Notes: generated by a model from the sequence alone, not told the origin. A stretch of 64,000 bases of DNA from an uncultured Mollicutes bacterium (GCA_945969495.1 CAMFOH010000001.1:4424-68423), one strand, 5' to 3'. Shown: positions 13,939 through 62,335, numbered from the stretch's first letter. A program made the numbers and translations.

Positions 13939-16569
13939 ATGCATCATGAAGATATAGAAAGTATTTTTAGAAAGCTAAATTCAAATCAAAAGGGATTAAG
14001 TAGCAAAGAAGCTCAAAAAAGATTATTAGAAAATGGTAAAAATATTTTGCCTAAAAAAAAGAAAGATAGTTTTATTAAAATATTTTTAAAAGGAATATTA
14101 GATCCGATAGTTTTGTTATTAGTTATTACCGTTGTTTTCTCTTTAATAGTAGGAGAAAAAACAGATGCTATTGCAATTTCATTTATTATATTAGTAGACT
14201 TAATATTGGGAGCTGTGCAAGAGTGGAAAGCTGAAAAAAATGCAGATAGCTTATCGAGCATAATAAAAGTAAAAGTTAACGTCTTGCGGGATAATAAAGA
14301 GGTAGAAATAGATTCTGAAGATTTAGTTGTTGGGGATATTATGATACTTGATTCCGGGGACAAACTAAGTGCTGATGCAAGAATCATAGAATCTCATAAC
14401 TTAACCGTTAGTGAGTCTGTTTTAACAGGAGAAAGCATAAACGTACCAAAAAAAGTATGCACGGTTAATAAGAAAGCTAGTATAAGCGAAATGAAAAATA
14501 TGCTATTTGCTGGTACCACAATAACTACTGGTAGGGCAATTGCCATCGTGACTAAAACGGGTATACAAACCGAAGTTGGTAAAATAGCTGATAAGGTAGC
14601 TAACGCAAAAGATGAGAAGTCTCCACTTACGATTAGAATGGATAAGTTTTCTAAACAAATTAGTTTATTAATAATTGTTATAGCAATAATCATAACTGTT
14701 TTATTATTTTATAAAGGAGTTCAAGGAAAAGAAATATTCTTATCGGTTATTGCACTTTCTGTTTCAGCGATGCCAGAAGGTCTTCCACTTGCACTTACCA
14801 TGGCACTTACCATTACGTCAAATAAAATGGTAAAGAAAAATTGTTTGGTAAAAAAATTAAACTCGGTTGAATCACTTGGTAGCTGTACGTATATAGCAAG
14901 TGATAAAACCGGTACTTTAACAGTTAATGAACAAACTGCTAAACGGATTGTATTACCAAATGGAAAAGCATATGATATTACTGGAATTGGTTATAATTTT
15001 GATGGTGAAATTAAGGTAAGTGATAAGAAAGATGAAGAACTAGTAAAAGAAATAGCAACTTTAGGGTACATAAATAACGAAGCGGGGCTTGAAAAAGAAG
15101 AAGATGGATACACATATTTTGGTGACTCAATAGATGTTGCTTTTAAAGCGCTTGGTAAGAAGGTTAAGGTTGACGTAAGTAGCTATGAAATACTTGGCAT
15201 GATACCTTATGAATCAGAAAATAAGTACTCAGCAGTTTTTTATAATACATGCGGGAATAATTATGCATCTGTTAAAGGATCTTTAGAAGTTGTTTTAAAT
15301 TTTTGCAAAAATACTAATGAAGAAAAGGAAAAAATAAAAAAACAAAATGAAGAATTAGCTAAAGAAGGATACCGGGTTATAGCACTTGCAAGTAGTAAAT
15401 TAGCTAATTTTAAATTAAAAGAAGACTATGATAAAAATGATATAGAAACTTTAGAGTTTAAGGGCTTAGTTGCGTTTATAGACCCAGTAAGAAAAGATGT
15501 TAAAGATTCTATAAACGAATGCGTAAAAGCTGGTATAAACGTTATTATGATTACTGGTGATCATCCTTTAACCGCGTACAAGATAGCTAAGGATTTAAAG
15601 TTGTGTAATTCCTATGATGAGGTAGCAACAGGTGCTGATGTCGAGATGATGAGCGAAAAAGGTGAAGATGAATTTGATAGATTTGTAAAATGTAAAAAAG
15701 TATTCTCAAGAGTTACGCCAATTGATAAGTTAAAAATAGTTGAATGAGGTCATAGTTAAGGTGAGGTTGGGGCGGGATGAGGGGAGGGAGGATATGTGGC
15801 TCCAGCCCTTATATGCGCTATCATAGGGATTGCATTGGGATCTGGTACTGATGGTGCAATAGAAACAGCTGATATGATAGTTCTTGATGATAGCTTTTCG
15901 TCAATTGTAAGTGGCGTTAAAGAAGGAAGAGGGGCATATAGTAACATTAGAAAAGTATCATATATGTTACTATCTTGTGGGCTTGCTGAGGTATTATTCT
16001 TTTGTTTATCAATATTCTTTGAGTTGCCTATGCCACTTGTTGCAATCCAATTATTATGGCTTAACATCGTAACGGATGGCCTTCAGGATTTTGCACTATC
16101 ATTTGAACCGACCGAAGATAAAGTAATGGAAGAAAAACCAAGAAAAACAAGTGATTCACTGTTTAATAAAGAATTACTTATAGAAGTTTTAATATCTGGA
16201 TTAACAATGGGAATCATCGTTTTTATGGTATGGAATAACCTACTTAAAAATGGCATGGATGTTAACGTTGCAAGAGGATATATAATGGCTCTTATGGTAT
16301 TTATGCAAAACATCCACGTCCTTAATTGTAGGAGTGAAAAAACGTCTGCATTTAAGATGAGTTTAAAGAAAAATTTATGGATACCAGTTGTAATAGTAGG
16401 TTCAATTATATTACAAATAATAGTTATGGAAAATGATGTTTTATCAAGTTTTTTAAAAACTAGTAGTGTGCCTTTTATAAACATGGTAGAACTTTTAGGA
16501 TTTTCACTTATCATACTACTTGTTGTTGAAATATATAAAATATTTAAAAGGAAAAAACGTTCTATTTAG
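13939..16569 (+). pseudogene. P-type (type IIA/IIB, Ca2+-type) ATPase disrupted at the hinge motif: N-terminal ORF 13939-15747 (DKTGTLT present) and C-terminal ORF 15796-16569, joined by a G-rich patch containing three stop codons and a frame change
   Basis: Compare intact paralog at 46950-49562: ...[29 protein letters not shown]; here the same stretch reads IVE*GHS*GEVGAG*GEGGYVAPALICAIIGIALGSGTD. Confidence 0.75.
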
Positions 16570-16591
16570 AATGTTTTTTGCGTATAATTTG

Positions 16592-16620
16592 TTGACTTAT
16601 ACTTTTTAATATGTTATCTT
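16592..16620 (+). promoter_or_regulatory. Putative sigma-A promoter of the leader-regulated operon (TTGACT-17-TATCTT)
   Basis: ttgact tatactttttaatatgt tatctt; the same architecture is conserved in the decayed copy at 11904-11932. Confidence 0.4.
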
Positions 16621-16644
16621 TAATTCAGTAAATGAAGAAAGGAG

Positions 16645-16773
16645 CGTGATTAATATGAAACTTAGATTTACTAACAACTATATTATATGCAAGATTAATC
16701 ACGTGAATTTCATCTAACTTTTAGTATTCATGTTTATTTAATCTTGCTTAAATAAAAAAAGCAAGATTTTTTT
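16645..16773 (+). promoter_or_regulatory. Four-segment transcription attenuator. Segment 1 cgtgattaat (16645-54) pairs with segment 2 attaatcacg (16694-703). Segment 2' gcaagattaa (16689-98) pairs with segment 3 ttaatcttgc (16738-47), forming the antiterminator. Segments 3/4 aatcttgctt (16740-49) and aagcaagatt (16759-68) plus T7 form the terminator.
   Basis: All pairings are perfect 10-mers read directly from the sequence; terminator followed by ttttttt; operon start 25 nt downstream. Confidence 0.7.
16655..16717 (+). CDS. Regulatory leader peptide, 20 aa (MKLRFTNNYIICKINHVNFI)
   Basis: RBS gaaaggag 7 nt upstream; the start codon sits inside attenuator segment 1 and codons 12-17 inside segment 2. 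Confidence 0.6.
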   Translation: MKLRFTNNYIICKINHVNFI

Positions 16774-16797
16774 CTTGCACTAAGGAAGGTGATAAAC

Positions 16798-17289
16798 ATG
16801 AACAAATTATATTTAATAACGGGACCAGCTGGTGTTGGAAAGACAACAATATCTAAACTTTTAGCAGAAAAATTAAGTAAGTCTATTTTGATAGAAGGTG
16901 ATGATATCTATCATATGGTAATAGGTGGTTATGTACAAGCATGGAAACCTAATAACCATTTAGACTTATTTTGGAAAAATATTATAAGTTTAATACAAAA
17001 TGGATTAGAAAATGGTTATGATGTTGTTTTTAATTACATCATTAATAGAAAAGATTATGAATTATTAAAAGATAAATTTAAAGAATATAATATTATTTTT
17101 AAAGTTCTATTAGTAAGTGAAGAAGAATTATTAAGAAGAGATAAATTAAGAGATCCAAGTTGTAGAATGAATGAAAGATGTTTAGTATTATTAAATAATT
17201 TTAAAAAGGAATATTTAAATAGTAAAAATGTAATTGATACAACGAATTTAAGCATTAATAAAACTTTAGAAAAAATTACGGAGGGATAA
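16798..17289 (+). CDS. P-loop kinase, TmrB/chloramphenicol-phosphotransferase-like (AAA_33-type) family
   Basis: Walker A LITGPAGVGKTTISKLLAEKL at N-terminus, about 165 aa; RBS aaggaaggtga before ATG 16798 (ORF track begins at an upstream GTG 16789). Confidence 0.6.
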   Translation: MNKLYLITGPAGVGKTTISKLLAEKLSKSILIEGDDIYHMVIGGYVQAWKPNNHLDLFWKNIISLIQNGLENGYDVVFNYIINRKDYELLKDKFKEYNIIFKVLLVSEEELLRRDKLRDPSCRMNERCLVLLNNFKKEYLNSKNVIDTTNLSINKTLEKITEG

Positions 17290-17870
17290 TGACGATAAAT
17301 GATATAAAAACTCCTAATGATATTTTAGAATATTTAAATGAAAATATAGAATATGGTTGGATAGGAACAGATGGAGAAAAAAGAATAAAAAACATGGATA
17401 ATTTTAGAAAATGTTATAAAACCATGTCACTTGAAAGTGTTTTAAACCAAAAAGTTGGTACATGTATAGAACAAGTTTATTTAATTCATGAGTTAATGAA
17501 TAAAATTGAAGTCCCATCAAAAATGTTTTGCACAAGAATGTATGAAGATGAAAATTTTGATGATTTAGACGCTCCAGAAAGAATGCACTGCTTTATACTA
17601 TTTTATATTGATGATGAAGTTTTTCAGTTGGAACATCCGGATTTTAATAGAGTAGGAATCTATAAATATGAAAGTGAAAACGATGCAATAGGTAAAATAG
17701 TAAATATATATGAAAGTATGATGAAAGAGGAATATAAAAGTAAAAATAAACCAGCACCTGAAGGTGGGTTTAAAAGAATAACAACTCAGTTTTTTGAGGT
17801 TGAACCTGGATTAACATATAAAGAATTTAATTTATACGTAAATAACTTAGATAAAGAAAAAATAAAATAA
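17289..17870 (+). CDS. Hypothetical protein (193 aa) with conserved Cys (VGTCIEQVYLIHELM), possibly transglutaminase-like/thiol enzyme
   Basis: ORF overlaps upstream stop by 1 nt (translational coupling). Confidence 0.45.
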   Translation: MTINDIKTPNDILEYLNENIEYGWIGTDGEKRIKNMDNFRKCYKTMSLESVLNQKVGTCIEQVYLIHELMNKIEVPSKMFCTRMYEDENFDDLDAPERMHCFILFYIDDEVFQLEHPDFNRVGIYKYESENDAIGKIVNIYESMMKEEYKSKNKPAPEGGFKRITTQFFEVEPGLTYKEFNLYVNNLDKEKIK

Positions 17871-17881
17871 GGAGGTATACT

Positions 17882-19633
17882 ATGACTGAAGAAAAAGAAC
17901 AAAAGAAAAGTATAAAAGAGTTTAAAAATATATATAATCTTGTAAAAAAAGATAAGTGGAAACTTTTAATAGCTTTTATATGTATTTTTATAAGCTCGCT
18001 TTTATCAATTACTAATGGTTGGTTGCAAGGTGAAGTTACTGAATCAATTGTTGCACTCAACATAAAAATGGCACTTTTTTACCTTGGTATTTATTTTGTA
18101 ATTGGGGTTTTCTTTAATAATATTTTGAATAATATTGGAACGATGATAGCAAGCAAAATAGAGGCTAATTTATCTAGAAAGTTAAGTATAATGGTTTATA
18201 AAAAAACACTTAATTTACCAGCGTATGCATTTGAGGAAAAAACAAGTGGAGAGCTTATTAACAGGATAACTTATGACACTGAAACATTATCAAGTATGTT
18301 TAACAATATTATCCAGACTCTTATAAATACTTTTGGATGTATTTTAATATTAATTTATATTTTATTTAATTCGAAGATTGTAGCACTAGAAATTATAATT
18401 TTCTTAATTATAATATTTATAGTAACTAAGATATTTAATCCTAAAATAAAGAAAATAAATAAAGAATTAAAAGCTAAAAAAGATGATTATACAGCATTAT
18501 CTACTGAGTCTATTAGAGGAATAAGAGAGATAAAAACGCTTGGGATAAAAGATAATTTATTAAAAGAAATAGATGAACTTAGAAATCTTATTTTTAAAAA
18601 AGACGTAGAAGATATAAATTTACATAGGATATATTCGATAATAATGTGGGTTGTTAAAATATCACTTGAATGTTTAGTTTTTGCAACTTGCTTAATAGAA
18701 ATATATTATGGGAAATCTAGTATTGGTTTTTTTATGGCAATGACTTGGTACATATATAGATTTACCTGGTTAATTGATAATTTAACAAGCATGAATAGAA
18801 TGTATCAAAAATTATTTGTATCTTTAAGAAGAATAAACGAAATAACAGATAATACTTTGTATAATGATGATGAATTTGGTTTGGTAAATATAAAAAGCCC
18901 GGTTGGTAAAATAACTTTTGATAACGTGACTTTTAATTATCCAAATGAAGAAATAACTTTAAAGAACCTTTCGGTTGTTTTTGAAACTGGTAAGAAAATA
19001 GCTATTGTAGGACGATCAGGCCAAGGTAAATCAACACTATTTAACTTAATTACTAGGATTTTTGATACCGAAGATGGCAACATATATTTAGATGATGTTA
19101 ACATAAAGGATTTAACTGAGGAATCATTAAGAAGAAACATATCAGTTATAAGGCAAGAACCATTTTTGTTTAATAGAACAATAAAGGATAATTTTAAGGT
19201 GGTTAAACCTAATATTACGTTAAAAGAAATTAAGAAATATTGTAAGATGGCTTATTTAGATGATTATATTGAATCTTTACCAAATAAATACAATACAAAA
19301 CTTGGTGAAGGTGGGGTTAACCTATCTGGTGGTCAAAAACAAAGGTTATCTATCGCAAGAGCACTTGCTAAAGAAAGTAAGGTAATATTATTTGATGAAG
19401 CAACTAGTGCACTTGATAATGAATCTCAAAGTTACATAAAAAAAGTTATTGATGACTTAGTAAAAAATCATACCATAATAATTGTTGCACATCGTTTATC
19501 TACGATTGTTGATGCAGATGTTATCTACGTTGTAGATAAGGGGCGAATAAGTGATAGTGGTACGCATAAAGAACTATTAGATAAAAGTAAGGTATATAAA
19601 ACTTTATACGAAAACGAAGACAAGGAAAGTTAA
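17882..19633 (+). CDS. ABC transporter, fused permease/ATP-binding half-transporter (type I exporter, MsbA/LmrA-like)
   Basis: 583 aa; six TM N-terminal domain; Walker A GRSGQGKST, signature LSGGQKQRLSIARAL, Walker B ILFDEATSALD. Confidence 0.85.
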   Translation: MTEEKEQKKSIKEFKNIYNLVKKDKWKLLIAFICIFISSLLSITNGWLQGEVTESIVALNIKMALFYLGIYFVIGVFFNNILNNIGTMIASKIEANLSRKLSIMVYKKTLNLPAYAFEEKTSGELINRITYDTETLSSMFNNIIQTLINTFGCILILIYILFNSKIVALEIIIFLIIIFIVTKIFNPKIKKINKELKAKKDDYTALSTESIRGIREIKTLGIKDNLLKEIDELRNLIFKKDVEDINLHRIYSIIMWVVKISLECLVFATCLIEIYYGKSSIGFFMAMTWYIYRFTWLIDNLTSMNRMYQKLFVSLRRINEITDNTLYNDDEFGLVNIKSPVGKITFDNVTFNYPNEEITLKNLSVVFETGKKIAIVGRSGQGKSTLFNLITRIFDTEDGNIYLDDVNIKDLTEESLRRNISVIRQEPFLFNRTIKDNFKVVKPNITLKEIKKYCKMAYLDDYIESLPNKYNTKLGEGGVNLSGGQKQRLSIARALAKESKVILFDEATSALDNESQSYIKKVIDDLVKNHTIIIVAHRLSTIVDADVIYVVDKGRISDSGTHKELLDKSKVYKTLYENEDKES

Positions 19634-19692
19634 TCCTTGTTTTTTGTATAAAACAAAAAAACTTTACATAAAATAAAATAGAATTAAAATAA

Positions 19693-19719
19693 TTAGCACT
19701 CACACTTGACAAGTGCTAA
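19693..19719 (+). promoter_or_regulatory. CIRCE operator (HrcA-binding inverted repeat TTAGCACTC-N9-aAGTGCTAA) overlapping a sigma-A promoter (TTGACA-17-TATAAC)
   Basis: ttagcactcacacttgacaagtgctaa 36 nt upstream of hsp20 start; -35 TTGACA lies within the spacer. Confidence 0.8.
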
Positions 19720-19754: not shown

Positions 19755-20156
19755 ATGATTAATATGAGTTTAATCCCAAGAAATTATTTAGGTGACATTT
19801 TTGAAGACTTTATGCCTAGTACAAGAGAGGATAACATGAAGTGCGATATTTACGAAAAGGATGGCGATTATCATATTGAAATGGATGTTCCAGGTTTTGA
19901 TAAGAATGAAATTAAAATCGAAGCCAAGAAAGATTATTTGACAATAACCGCTGAGAAATCAAGTGAAACAAACAATGAAGATGAAAGTAAAAAATACATT
20001 CATCGTGAAAGAACTTATGGTAAATACCAAAGGTCATTTTATCTACATGATTTAGATTCAGATAAAGTAAATGCTGAATTTAATAATGGTGTTTTAAAAA
20101 TAGTTGTACCTAAAAAGGATGAAACAGAAGATAAAAAATACATCGAAATAAAATAA
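19755..20156 (+). CDS. Hsp20/alpha-crystallin family small heat-shock protein
   Basis: 133 aa; alpha-crystallin domain DIYEKDGDYHIEMDVPGFDKNEIKIEAK...NGVLKIVVPK. Confidence 0.85.
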   Translation: MINMSLIPRNYLGDIFEDFMPSTREDNMKCDIYEKDGDYHIEMDVPGFDKNEIKIEAKKDYLTITAEKSSETNNEDESKKYIHRERTYGKYQRSFYLHDLDSDKVNAEFNNGVLKIVVPKKDETEDKKYIEIK

Positions 20157-20258: not shown

Positions 20259-21497
20259 GTGATTTTGGTGAAGAAAGAAGAGAAACGAAAAAAGATAATA
20301 CAAGAACAAGAAGAATTAAAAAAAAGAAGACAAGATAGAATAGATAAAGGTCTTCTAGCGGAAGAATTAGAAAGTATTGAAAAAAATATGAACTTACATA
20401 ATACTTTGTATGCTTTAATGAAGATAGTTAATACTGTTAGTGGTTATAAAAAAGATTTTTTAAATGGGAAAACACTTTATAAAAGGGAATTTTTTAAGTT
20501 TTTAGAAGAATTGTATAAAGAACATCCAGAATATAAAAATAGGCCTATAATATTTGCTCCTAACCATGTTAGAATGCAAGATATTGCAATCGAAATGGAT
20601 GCTATTGCTTTACATATGGTTTTATTATCAGGTGATTTTGAGAATGTTCACCCTGATATTTCTGGTAAATTATTAGAAAAAAACGGTATTTTATATTTAG
20701 ATATGGATAATCCATATAATACTCCAGAACTAAAAAAGGATGAATCATATTTAGAAGAGTTAAAAGAGTATATTGAACTTACTGATAATGATAGCTTAAA
20801 AAAGGAATACAATGAAGAATTAAAAAAATATAACGATAAAGTAAGTAAAATAATAAATGATAGAAAAAACATAAAAAAAGTTATAAAAGATGTTTTAGAT
20901 AATGGTTATAATATGCTATGGTATTATGAGGGTTCGTGGAATTTTTCTGAAAACAAGCCATATTATGATGGCTATAACTACATTGTTCAGGCAGCTATAG
21001 ATTCTAATGCGATAGTTTTTCCAGTTGCTTTTGATCTTGTCGATAAAAAGCATACTTTTGGTAAAAGAAAAGCTTGCATTAGATTTGGAAAGCCAATAGA
21101 TTATATGGCAATTTATGGCAACAAAACACTAACTATGGAAGAAAAAATAGAAGGTTTAGATTTGTTAAAAGGCCAGATCGGTTATGAATTAGTTGCTAAT
21201 ATATGGGAAAAGAACTCTTCTATTAAAAGGGATGAACTTGCTAAAAAATATAGTAAGAAATTATCAGTAGAAGATTATTTTGTTCCTGATTATAAAAAAA
21301 CTAGCCCACTTAGTGCATACTGGGATGAATATAAAGCTATAGCTTTAAAAGAATGGAAATTCACTGAAGAAGATATAGAAAAAAAACATTTTGTTGATAA
21401 AACGAAGGTAGAACAAGAAGAAGCATTTAAACACTTAGATGATTTAAATTTGAATCAAAAAAATGCATTTTTATTATCTAAAAGAAACCATCATTAA
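20259..21497 (+). CDS. Lysophospholipid (PlsC-type) acyltransferase family protein with long N- and C-terminal extensions
   Basis: HxxxxD acyltransferase motif (APNHVRMQD); start codon uncertain (GTG at 20259 or a downstream codon). Confidence 0.5.
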   Translation: MILVKKEEKRKKIIQEQEELKKRRQDRIDKGLLAEELESIEKNMNLHNTLYALMKIVNTVSGYKKDFLNGKTLYKREFFKFLEELYKEHPEYKNRPIIFAPNHVRMQDIAIEMDAIALHMVLLSGDFENVHPDISGKLLEKNGILYLDMDNPYNTPELKKDESYLEELKEYIELTDNDSLKKEYNEELKKYNDKVSKIINDRKNIKKVIKDVLDNGYNMLWYYEGSWNFSENKPYYDGYNYIVQAAIDSNAIVFPVAFDLVDKKHTFGKRKACIRFGKPIDYMAIYGNKTLTMEEKIEGLDLLKGQIGYELVANIWEKNSSIKRDELAKKYSKKLSVEDYFVPDYKKTSPLSAYWDEYKAIALKEWKFTEEDIEKKHFVDKTKVEQEEAFKHLDDLNLNQKNAFLLSKRNHH

Positions 21498-40762: not shown

Positions 40763-40837
40763 TGCCCTGTAGCCAAGTGGTAAGGCATCGGACTCTGACC
40801 CCGACATGCACTGGTTCGAATCCAGTCAGGGCAACCA
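40763..40837 (+). tRNA. tRNA-Gln (anticodon CUG)
   Basis: 75 nt, acceptor tgccctg/cagggca, anticodon loop cuCUGac, T-loop ggttcgaat, encoded CCA. Confidence 0.85.
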
Positions 40838-40849
40838 ATAAAATTATAT

Positions 40850-40926
40850 GGCCCGTTGGTGAAGGGGTTTAACACATCGCCCTCTCAAGGCGACATTCAC
40901 GAGTTCAAATCTCGTACGGGTCACCA
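40850..40926 (+). tRNA. tRNA-Glu (anticodon CUC)
   Basis: 77 nt, ggcccgt.../...acgggtc acceptor, anticodon loop ctCTCaa, T-loop agttcaaat, encoded CCA. Confidence 0.85.
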
Positions 40927-42963: not shown

Positions 42964-43079
42964 TTTTTTATTATTTTAGGGGGTTTTTAAAAGTTATGTT
43001 TAATAATTAATATGAGAGAATCTAACGTGGGTAGTAGCTTTCCATCTTTTTATAAAGAAGAAAAGGGTGGGTGATATTT

Positions 43080-43160
43080 ATGAAAAAAGAAACTAGTTTT
43101 CAAAGAGTAATAATTATCCTTCTAATTTTATTATTAGACATACTAATATTTAAAATATAA
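43080..43160 (+). CDS. Small hydrophobic peptide, 26 aa (MKKETSFQRVIIILLILLLDILIFKI)
   Basis: RBS aaagggtgggtga; followed immediately by strong terminator. Confidence 0.4.
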   Translation: MKKETSFQRVIIILLILLLDILIFKI

Positions 43161-43162
43161 AA

Positions 43163-43200
43163 GAAAAAGCGTACATACCCAAGTAGGGTGTACGCTTTTT
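43163..43200 (+). terminator. Rho-independent terminator (agcgtaca...tgtacgct + T5)
   Basis: Long imperfect stem aaaagcgtacataccc/gggtgtacgcttttt. Confidence 0.7.
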
Positions 43201-43326
43201 CCATTAGACATTAATGAAAAGCTACTAACCTTTAAGTTAGGTGCTCTTTCTAATTAAATTATATAAAAATATTAAACTTAAGTAAATAATTATTTAATTA
43301 TTTTTTATGTTTTATACTAATAAAGG

Positions 43327-54065: not shown

Positions 54066-54140
54066 GGGGCTATAGCCAAGTTGGTAAGGCATTGGACTGC
54101 AACTCCACGATCGCCGGTTCAAGTCCGGCTGGCCCCTCCA
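54066..54140 (+). tRNA. tRNA-Cys (anticodon GCA)
   Basis: 75 nt; anticodon loop ctGCAac; T-arm gccggttcaagtccggc; CCA encoded. Confidence 0.8.
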
Positions 54141-54147
54141 ATTATAT

Positions 54148-54222
54148 GCAGGTGTAGTACAACGGCTAGTACGTGGCCTTGCCAAGGCTAAGACGTGGGT
54201 TCGATTCCCATCACTTGCTCCA
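54148..54222 (+). tRNA. tRNA-Gly (anticodon GCC)
   Basis: 75 nt; anticodon loop ttGCCaa; T-arm gtgggttcgattcccat; CCA encoded. Confidence 0.8.
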
Positions 54223-62137: not shown

Positions 62138-62185
62138 TATAATAGGTTATATAAAGATAAAGAAGCATATGGAGGATAACTTCTT

Positions 62186-62335
62186 TTTTTAGCGCCAGGC
62201 CTTTAAATAGGTGACGAGGACTATGGTTATCGAAATGTTCGGCGGATGCCATAGCGGACTTGTGAATCGTAAGAAATACTTTTAAAAGATAAAATCAAAA
62301 TTATAACAGAGAGGTATTTCACACAGTTGTTTTTA
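62186..62335 (+). ncRNA. glmS ribozyme (GlcN6P-responsive self-cleaving riboswitch)
   Basis: Core ...tttttAGCGCCAGgcctttaaataggtGACGAGGactatgg...gttcggcggatgccatagcggac... upstream of glmS. Confidence 0.85.

Follow-up and report, generated by a model that had tools for sequence, protein, structure and literature searches.

A predicted ribosome-dependent leader-peptide attenuator upstream of a kinase and ABC exporter operon in an uncultured Mollicutes bacterium, and its relatives in gut Firmicutes

Introduction

The vmlR leader of Bacillus subtilis is built from an upstream open reading frame (ORF) for MIN, an anti-antiterminator (SL-1), an antiterminator, a terminator (SL-3) and a stem-loop that sequesters the Shine-Dalgarno (SD) sequence (SL-4) (PMC9226507). 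In the same species, the bmrB-bmrCD leader controls a multidrug ATP-binding cassette (ABC) exporter by ribosome-mediated transcription attenuation and is induced by ribosome-targeting drugs (PMC4191407); for both leaders, the switching logic has been established experimentally (PMC9226507; PMC4191407). Drug-arrested ribosomes also bring about attenuation of translation, or of both transcription and translation, at the erm, cat-86 and msrD leaders (PMC4191407; PMC10314930), and the trp attenuator of E. coli is the classical leader-peptide attenuator with four segments (PMC4191407). Here we describe a candidate leader of this kind in a stretch of 64,000 nucleotides (nt) from an uncultured Mollicutes bacterium (GCA_945969495.1, CAMFOH010000001.1:4424-68423), called the window below. 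It precedes an operon for a kinase-like protein, a transglutaminase-like protein and an ABC exporter (positions 16592 to 19633).

This region had been read before as an antibiotic-sensing transcription attenuator of the erm/cat/bmrCD type (the original prediction). The analogy proved apt, though the closest analogue is the vmlR leader (PMC9226507). We put the probability at roughly 75% that the element is a ribosome-dependent leader-peptide attenuator, acting mainly through transcription termination and probably also through translation initiation of the first gene. It is a new sequence family of a known kind, the ribosome-dependent attenuators, and is conserved in gut Firmicutes.

Results

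The leader and its predicted switch

A leader ORF of 20 codons with its own ribosome-binding site (RBS) was found both by direct reading and by exact matching, as the original prediction had it, downstream of a transcript start placed at ~16627 by a consensus promoter scan (Table 1). Exact matching and a repeat finder showed that segments 1 and 2, 2' and 3, and 3' and 4 are each a perfect 10-mer complement. All the perfect 10-nt pairs that had been predicted are present, at coordinates about 1 nt lower than implied. Segment 1 had been thought to cover the leader start codon; it actually abuts the ATG and occupies the spacer between SD and ATG. The seven T placed after segment 4 exist as well, but two of them fall within that segment, and the stem is then followed by UUUUUCUU. 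The terminator formed by segments 3' and 4 has a 10-bp stem, a 9-nt loop and an energy of -10 kcal/mol in silico, and is absent from the scan of the plus strand because its loop exceeds 8 nt.

Helix 1:2 and terminator 3:4 were each calculated at -10 kcal/mol, giving a sum of about -20 kcal/mol versus -17.6 kcal/mol for the antiterminator 2':3 with its inner hairpin (16701-08:16726-33). The alternative folds are therefore competitive, as the original prediction presupposed. Ensemble folding of the RNA from 16627 to 16770 without a ribosome yielded probabilities of 0.95 for helix 1:2 and 0.94 for the terminator. For the ribosome-bound states the ribosome was treated as a barrier whose leading edge lay 12 or 15 nt beyond the first base in the P-site, and folding was confined to the RNA downstream of that edge; a simple ribosome mask was dropped since it let helix 1:2 form across the ribosome. 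The antiterminator formed with P=0.92-0.97 when codons 1 to 7 or 8 occupied the P-site, and the terminator formed with P=0.95 from codon 8 or 9 through the stop codon, so that folding with and without the leader masked predicts a clean switch. The predicted sensor window thus covers about the first seven codons, which sharpens the wording "at or just after initiation" of the original prediction; its central claim, that a ribosome held there frees segments 2 and 2' for the 2:3 pairing, was backed by every computational test applied. Ribosome-position scans in 11 lineages predicted a permissive window of codons 1-4 to 1-7 in six and partial switching in two (L091 and L103). A model with stalling at the stop codon was rejected, since 2' and the stop are not separated by a constant distance (13, 17 or 26 nt). 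The leader fold as a whole has a z-score of -3.1.

Conservation and covariation of the leader

More than 1,600 homologues of the kinase were present in a large protein collection. Three close relatives encode kinases that are 94% (L076), 89% (L077) and 72% (L079) identical, with the leader peptides MRYRFTNNYFICKINHVNFI, MKYEFTNNYFICKINHVNFI and MIKITNKICISRINHATI, respectively. They retain the promoter boxes and all paired segments: the -35 box and the TG-extended -10 box are unchanged in all three while the flanking bases drift, segment 5 is kept, and variation affects 18 of 76 structured columns versus 41 of 89 elsewhere (p=0.003). In L079 the inner hairpin is built from CGCAAC/GTTGTG in place of ACGTGAAT/ATTCATGT, a compensatory change, and segment 2' reads GCAGGATTAA, with G·U in place of an A-U pair.

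Among 71 kinase-encoding genome loci the leader was present at three, L041 (Clostridium sp. CAG:609) and L046 and L059 (Bacilli metagenome-assembled genomes, MAGs), and it is therefore no fixed companion of the kinase. A pattern derived from five distinct leaders, GAAAGGAGYGTGATNNANATGAN{25,55}ATCAC, with GAAAGGAGYGTGAT held fixed, retrieved 64 further copies on metagenome contigs, mostly from human gut, in front of kinase, GNAT, deaminase and ABC-F operons. All copies have the leader SD, but the SD was itself part of the search pattern. Class A leaders (M-x-K/R-I/F-T...(V/I)NH) stand upstream of the kinase. Class B leaders (MKNLQ..AELIT..) precede operons that begin with a fusion of an ASCH domain and a cytidine deaminase and that also encode several GNATs, a GNAT-transglutaminase-like fusion, a P-loop protein and Ham1; some encode an ABC-F protein passing the NCBIfam ribosomal-protection-like model (465 vs 380 bits). 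Class C leaders (MKKLN... or MRQLN...) are found upstream of a transglutaminase-like protein and GNATs.

In 35 of 35 distinct copies the frame of the leader ATG stays open over 18-28 codons, whereas the +2 frame meets a stop after 2-10 codons, and the leader stop invariably lies between segments 2 and 3. These observations argue strongly for translation of the ORF and for a role of its length. Class A leaders read the ATCAC core as N-H and class B leaders read it as L-I-T; thus, the RNA helix is conserved and the peptide is not.

All classes share the same folding logic with different sequences. Segments 2' and 3 of the window leader are GCAAGATTAA and TTAATCTTGC, with GCAAGATT for segment 4 and the terminator. 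The corresponding parts in class B are GCAGAATTAA, TTAATTCTGC (segment 3 and terminator 5' region) and GCAGAATT (segment 4 and terminator), and in class C TATATAGA(A/T)AG, CTCTCTATATA and a segment 4 within AGCTCTC-TATATAT-TGAGAGCT. Lineage L095 has AAATAGAGA as 2' and TCTCTATTT as segment 3 and terminator 5' region. Helix 1:2 is altered in class C from GTGATTAA/TTAATCAC to GTGATGAA/TTCATCAC.

Pairing was tested at the level of the helix: the 15 nt that directly precede ATCAC were compared with the terminator's flank and arm on the 5' side and with its loop, and 3,000 15-mers drawn from each copy's own locus served as the null. The p values were 0.0017 (window), 0.001 (L079), 0.0003 (class B1), 0.001 and 0.0003 (class B2), 0.005 (class C) and 0.012 (L095), with weaker values for L059, L046 and L103; the Fisher combination over seven lineages was p=2.4e-7. 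A cross-lineage duplex matrix (leader of one lineage against terminator of another) was dropped because the ATCAC/GTGAT elements that the lineages have in common confounded it.

MAFFT failed to align the 5' arms of the terminators correctly across classes, and therefore a covariance model was built, with which 43 distinct sequences were aligned. In the terminated fold (1:2 plus 3:4) 96% of cells were paired and 12 of 17 pairs had changed on both sides; slid controls reached 33-48% paired, and none of 500 shuffles came up to this. Compensatory changes in helix 1:2 occur at positions free of the search pattern (TAA/TTA, GAA/TTC, TTA/TAA), and all eight stem pairs of the terminator covary across copies. 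For the antiterminator, to which the alignment was not fitted, the six-pair core of 2':3 was 88% paired with 5 of 6 pairs changed on both sides, compared with 21-48% in slid controls and no shuffle attaining the covariation score; L076 and L079 are misaligned in these columns and were counted as unpaired, which is conservative. Taken together, in silico analysis and comparison show the ORF, three covarying helices that are alternatives to one another, and a predicted switch that depends on the position of the ribosome.

Masking of the kinase start codon

The repeat finder also showed that the anti-start element is an 11/11 perfect complement of ATAAACATGAA, which includes the kinase start codon. 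Pairing of 16729-50 with the initiation region of the kinase gives a longer duplex of -18.5 kcal/mol (p=0.0003), and L079 carries CATTTTAATCTT/AAGATTAAAATG in place of the anti-start pair, a compensatory replacement (p=0.0013). When no ribosome occupies the leader, the kinase start codon has a probability of 0.00 of being unpaired in full-length RNA, and the 4:5 hairpin holds segment 4, which leaves segment 3 and its flank free to pair with the kinase start region. With the ribosome at codon 6 or earlier the inner hairpin takes up the anti-start element, and this probability is 0.55. Masking of this kind accounts for segment 5 and predicts dual transcriptional and translational control: read-through mRNA would probably be translationally masked too unless the antiterminator forms. 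Elsewhere start masking was weak, with p~0.02-0.05 in L089, in class B1 and in one B2 lineage, and was absent in the rest.

Variants and further features of the leader

Variants of the leader without a terminator (MNRITNNYNQVNHTMINK, MKKITKNYNQVNHTIKIK) are located upstream of the kinase at L041 (4896-5001), L092, L125 and related loci. Helices 1:2 and 2:3 are retained in these variants, which have no T-run either; the gene begins 33 nt past the leader stop, and the L092 variant has a hairpin over the SD. Such variants are probably a translation-only form of the switch.

Several short elements accompany the helices. A nucleotide motif, A-W-TTAC-W-A, lies ~8-15 nt past the leader ATG (16664-16674 in the window), outside every helix, and is kept in classes A and B despite different frames (R/K-F/I-T-N vs K-N-L-Q). 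The leader SD region GAAAGGAG-C-GTGAT (16637-16654) complements the 3' end of 16S rRNA apart from a single additional base, and segment 2 (AUCAC...; AUCACUACUCC in class B1) accordingly resembles a mimic of the 16S 3' end. The RBS of the kinase, AAGGAAGGTGATAAACATG (16782-800), is similar to that of the leader, with two mismatches and a chance expectation of 0.06 matches. TTATTT at 16733-38 fits TTNTTT, the NusG-pausing motif; such motifs are common in AT-rich DNA.

Rfam 15 gave no match between 16.5 and 16.9 kb at gathering thresholds and chance-level ones at E<=10, and a BLAST search of PLSDB plasmids with the leader gave no match. The covariance model of the leader matched the window weakly at 43062-43208 (24 bits, E=0.2). 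This stretch comprises an SD, a hydrophobic ORF of 26 codons (MKKETSFQRVIIILLILLLDILIFKI) and a strong G+C-rich terminator, and is probably an unrelated small membrane-peptide gene.

The controlled genes

The genes of the operon overlap or sit 11 nt apart (Table 1). The first belongs to the family of BH3686 (PDB 2BDT), a structural-genomics protein: the profile match to 2BDT covers residues 1-160 with E=2.3e-46, and Foldseek gave a TM score of 0.86 at 41% identity for a structure model with pLDDT 90.5. The TmrB/CPT-like assignment of the original prediction stands at the level of the fold, where the neighbours include CPT (1QHS, TM 0.77, 11% identity) and the tunicamycin-resistance protein TmrD (2VLI, TM 0.74), but not at the level of sequence. 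CPT was rejected, with no PF07931 match and no retrieval of CPT in a PDB profile search at E<=1; TmrB was rejected at sequence level, and the resemblance is in the fold alone; and Gar/GrdA gentamicin-resistance ATP-binding protein was rejected by NF038208 (34.7 bits vs a cut-off of 170). BLAST of the kinase against PLSDB plasmids found three distant "AAA family ATPase" matches only, and a literature search for BH3686 returned nothing relevant.

The second gene product has a transglutaminase-like domain, which is fused to the kinase in two Bacilli MAGs (L046 5001-6050, L059 5001-6070) and to a GNAT acetyltransferase, sometimes with an added ASCH domain, in class B operons (L107, L113). These fusions imply a shared substrate. 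The third protein had been called MsbA-like. It is an ABCB-type half-transporter with ABCB1 and MsbA as best PDB matches, but falls below the MsbA equivalog cut-off (TIGR02203, 385 vs 602 bits) and is classed as a generic ABCB-type exporter; it follows the kinase in close relatives only. PADLOC defence models gave generic P-loop and ABC matches only.

Table 1. Positions of the leader elements, the controlled genes and the flanking terminators in the window.
Feature	Position	Strand	Sequence and remarks
Terminator of upstream P-type ATPase gene	ends near 16572		read directly
Promoter	16592-16620	+	-35 TTGACT (16592-97), 17-nt spacer, extended -10 TGtTATCTT (16612-20); consensus scan
Leader SD	16637-16644	+	GAAAGGAG; from sequence; GGAG core 16641-44; 10 nt upstream of ATG
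Segment 1	16645-16654	+	CGTGATTAAT; 5' strand of anti-antiterminator helix 1:2; fills SD-to-ATG spacer
Leader ORF	16655-16717	+	MKLRFTNNYIICKINHVNFI; ATG 16655, TAA 16715-17; 20 codons plus stop
Segment 2'	16689-16698	+	GCAAGATTAA; antiterminator 5' strand; inside leader codons 12-15
Segment 2	16694-16703	+	ATTAATCACG; 3' strand of helix 1:2; overlaps 2'; 16S rRNA 3'-end-like
Inner antiterminator hairpin	16701-16733	+	ACGTGAAT (16701-08) pairs with ATTCATGT (16726-33)
Anti-start element	16727-16737	+	TTCATGTTTAT; complementary to kinase translation start region
Segment 3/3'	16738-16749	+	TTAATCTTGCTT; common to antiterminator (with 2') and terminator (with 4); segment 3 TTAATCTTGC (16738-47) is partner of 2', segment 3' AATCTTGCTT (16740-49) is partner of 4
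Segment 4 and T7 run	16759-16773	+	AAGCAAGATT (16759-68), T7 16767-73; terminator 3' arm
Segment 5	16773-16778	+	TCTTGC; pairs with GCAAGA (16761-66) in read-through RNA: 4:5 hairpin, -8.2 kcal/mol
Kinase initiation region	16782-16802	+	SD AAGGAAGG (16782-89), ATG 16798-800, anti-start complement 16792-802
P-loop kinase-like protein	16798-17289	+	163 aa; BH3686 (PDB 2BDT) family; Pfam AAA_18/AAA_33
Transglutaminase-like Cys-His hydrolase or transferase fold protein	17289-17870	+	193 aa; start overlaps kinase stop
ABCB-type half-transporter (exporter)	17882-19633	+	583 aa; Pfam ABC_membrane and ABC_tran
Operon-closing intrinsic terminator	19620-19645	+	ACAAGGA-AAGTTAA-TCCTTGT then T6; from sequence; overlaps ABC stop codon

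Other features of the window

The gene upstream of the leader encodes a cation-transporting P-type ATPase (13939-16569), which is a single intact ORF of 876 aa in L076 and L077. In the window, substitutions cluster in a patch of ~75 nt (15752-15830) of unchanged length; most of them are to G, and the patch introduces three in-frame stops and abolishes the TGDGVNDAPALK motif. Either the gene is a pseudogene or the patch is an artefact of sequencing or assembly of the poly-G type. Downstream of the operon, a CIRCE-like inverted repeat (TTAGCACTC-N9-AAGTGCTAA, 19693-19719) just upstream of hsp20 (19755-20156) suggests heat-shock control of the HrcA type. The ORF of 412 aa that follows hsp20 (20259-21497) had no Pfam or NCBIfam match; L079 has an ORF of 399 aa at the equivalent position, and in L077 a histidine-kinase gene comes directly after hsp20. 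An Rfam scan detected a glmS ribozyme/riboswitch at 62180-62329 (70.6 bits) and tRNA genes at 40763-40923 and 54066-54219.

Discussion

Proposed mechanism

The promoter at ~16592-16620 would give rise to an mRNA whose first feature is a strong SD followed by the leader ORF. As long as no ribosome sits at the leader start, segment 1 would pair with segment 2, shutting the leader RBS and occupying the overlapping segment 2'; segment 3 would then be free for segment 4, and the 3:4 hairpin with its U-run would halt transcription near 16773. During normal translation the ribosome would cover segments 2 and 2' while segment 3 emerges, and the terminator would form again. Segment 1 is predicted to be blocked and 2' left free only when a ribosome is held on the start codon or elsewhere in the first ~seven codons. 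Pairing of 2' with 3, together with the inner hairpin, would then preclude the terminator and let the polymerase read into the genes for the kinase, the Cys-hydrolase-like protein and the ABC exporter. The antiterminator would also tie up the anti-start element, which in full-length RNA may otherwise base-pair, with the aid of the 4:5 hairpin, with the start codon of the kinase, and induction would therefore unmask translation as well.

Several points weigh against this reading. Actual termination, translation of the leader and stalling of ribosomes on it are predictions. Equilibrium folding leaves aside kinetics, pausing of RNA polymerase and the real geometry of the ribosome, and in three of the 11 lineages (L095, L059 and L046) it predicted no loss of the terminator. 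The terminator itself is weak, with three G-C pairs, a loop of 9 nt and an interrupted U-run. Masking of the start region is significant in the window and the L079 lineage only. The covariance alignment was fitted to the 1:2 plus 3:4 fold, five of the 1:2 pairs and the SD were fixed by the search pattern, and many leader copies are close relatives and hence non-independent. Neither a shared arrest motif nor a signature specific to an inducer is conserved among the copies, whose N-termini vary by class (MKLRF, MIKIT, MKNLQ, MKKLN, MRQLN, MKLIK), and ASCH-cytidine deaminase, Ham1 and GNATs could equally serve nucleoside or housekeeping metabolism.

Alternative explanations

A cluster of inverted repeats arising by chance around a spurious short ORF in AT-rich intergenic DNA would be in keeping with the window, which holds 110 perfect 10-nt inverted repeats versus ~42 in random sequence, with up to 7 overlapping in a 150-nt bin. 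From the window alone the case against chance is weak. The comparative evidence is decisive: the conservation, the compensatory changes and the same logic re-invented with different sequences in many lineages effectively refute this explanation, to which we give virtually no weight. If instead a protein, a small RNA or a metabolite chose between 1:2 and 2':3 and the ORF were incidental, one could understand why the 5' module is conserved at the nucleotide level, including the A-W-TTAC motif across frames, and why expression platforms vary as in riboswitches. Such a translation-independent riboregulator is nevertheless highly improbable given the strong, well-spaced SD, the ATG and the long open frame in every one of the AT-rich copies while other frames close early, the indels between classes that preserve an open frame, the stop that is always placed between segments 2 and 3, the otherwise poor conservation of the loop between segments 1 and 2 and the lack of an Rfam match. 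More improbable still is a classical amino-acid-supply attenuator like trp, his or ilv, stalling at scarce Asn, Ile or Lys codons. It shares the four-segment logic of trp, and pairs of Asn do occur (N7N8 in the window leader, N6N7 in L041, N8N9 in class B1), but at ~25% GC no residues are commoner than N, I and K, runs of a single codon are absent, the codons of the permissive window differ by class with L059 having no early Asn, the peptide is not conserved over the differently read ATCAC part, and the downstream genes are not biosynthetic.

The same RNA switch might also serve a signal other than antibiotics, i.e., general translation capacity or a slowdown of early elongation in starvation, (p)ppGpp accumulation, cold or tRNA or formylation defects, with a stress or housekeeping operon that modifies and exports nucleosides or small molecules rather than conferring resistance. 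This would fit the lack of a drug-specific arrest motif, the differing peptides in the sensor window (MKLRFTN, MIKITN, MKNL, MRQL, MKKL), the position of the kinase outside the resistance families and the class B genes, which suit nucleoside and acetyl metabolism as well as drug modification. It is the main rival, but we consider it rather unlikely: all experimentally studied attenuators of such design answer ribosome-targeting drugs (PMC9226507, PMC4191407), the regulated genes include a ribosomal-protection-like ABC-F and ABCB-type exporters, and the fold neighbours of the kinase include CPT and a tunicamycin-resistance protein. For the ribosome-dependent attenuator, the early-codon window, the diversity of codons and the ABC-F and exporter genes point to agents that arrest initiation or early elongation. 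That the inducer is a translation inhibitor or another condition arresting ribosomes at these stages is a view to which we give even odds.

Implications

If the switch works as predicted, its sequence signature would flag uncharacterised genes of gut commensals that are inducible by translation stress, and the flagged genes (BH3686-like kinases, transglutaminase-fold fusions, ASCH-deaminases) would become candidates for antibiotic-modifying or export functions. The leader would then also be a compact natural reporter of ribosome arrest at early codons. It would add a family well supported by covariation to the few leader-peptide attenuators that combine transcriptional and translational control. 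More speculatively, the 5' module might be a previously undescribed, widespread "pioneer-ribosome" sensor of uncultured gut Firmicutes that marks a hidden inducible resistome. This module would tentatively consist of the extended SD, a spacer helix with a 16S-3'-end-like sequence in an ORF of ~20 codons and a sensor window of 4-7 codons, and could conceivably be wired to either terminators or start-site masks. It is equally doubtful, if possible, that the BH3686-family kinases, transglutaminase-kinase and transglutaminase-GNAT fusions, ASCH-deaminases, ABC-F proteins and ABC exporters behind it modify or expel ribosome-targeting compounds.

Comparison with known systems

In the erm, cat-86 and msrD leaders, as in the model proposed here, a stalled ribosome on a short leader remodels downstream hairpins, and without induction the fold hides the resistance gene's start region, a mask that is predicted for the window and L079 and is weak or absent in other classes. 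Arrest motifs of such leaders are IFVI in ErmCL, MRLR in ErmDL, MVKTD in cat-86 and MYLIFM in MsrDL. These are specific to drug and peptide, whereas none is conserved in the present family, in which segment 2 is read in two frames.

With the bmrB leader the window shares a leader peptide with terminator, antiterminator and anti-antiterminator in front of an ABC exporter operon. BmrB has 53 codons and a terminator inside the ORF, whereas the window leader has 20 codons and a terminator 23 nt beyond its stop; the BmrCD exporter is heterodimeric, whereas the window has one half-transporter gene preceded by two enzyme-like genes. By its architecture (ORF length, place of the terminator, single half-transporter), the leader falls outside the bmrB-bmrCD leader family.

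The trp attenuator follows the same 1:2/2:3/3:4 logic, in which either no translation or unimpeded translation leads to termination and a 5' stall leads to read-through. In contrast to trp, the window leader has no regulatory codons for a particular amino acid and its targets are not biosynthetic. Furthermore, since segment 1 is the SD-to-ATG spacer of the leader, helix 1:2 also closes the leader RBS, which is not the case in trp.

The likeness to the vmlR leader is closest. In both, the start of the upstream ORF is located at the base of or inside the anti-antiterminator helix with the SD a short way upstream, arrest of a ribosome at initiation or directly thereafter blocks the anti-antiterminator so that the antiterminator forms and transcription reads through, and the induced fold opens the downstream RBS too; for the window these steps and the resulting dual control of transcription and translation are predicted. 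The two leaders have no sequence relationship, their ORFs have 20 versus 3 codons, and vmlR encodes an ABC-F protein whereas the window leader controls a BH3686-like kinase, a transglutaminase-fold protein and an ABC exporter. Unlike in vmlR, the ORF of the window leader contains both the 3' strand of helix 1:2 and the antiterminator's 5' strand, and a normally elongating ribosome would thus restore termination, as in trp.

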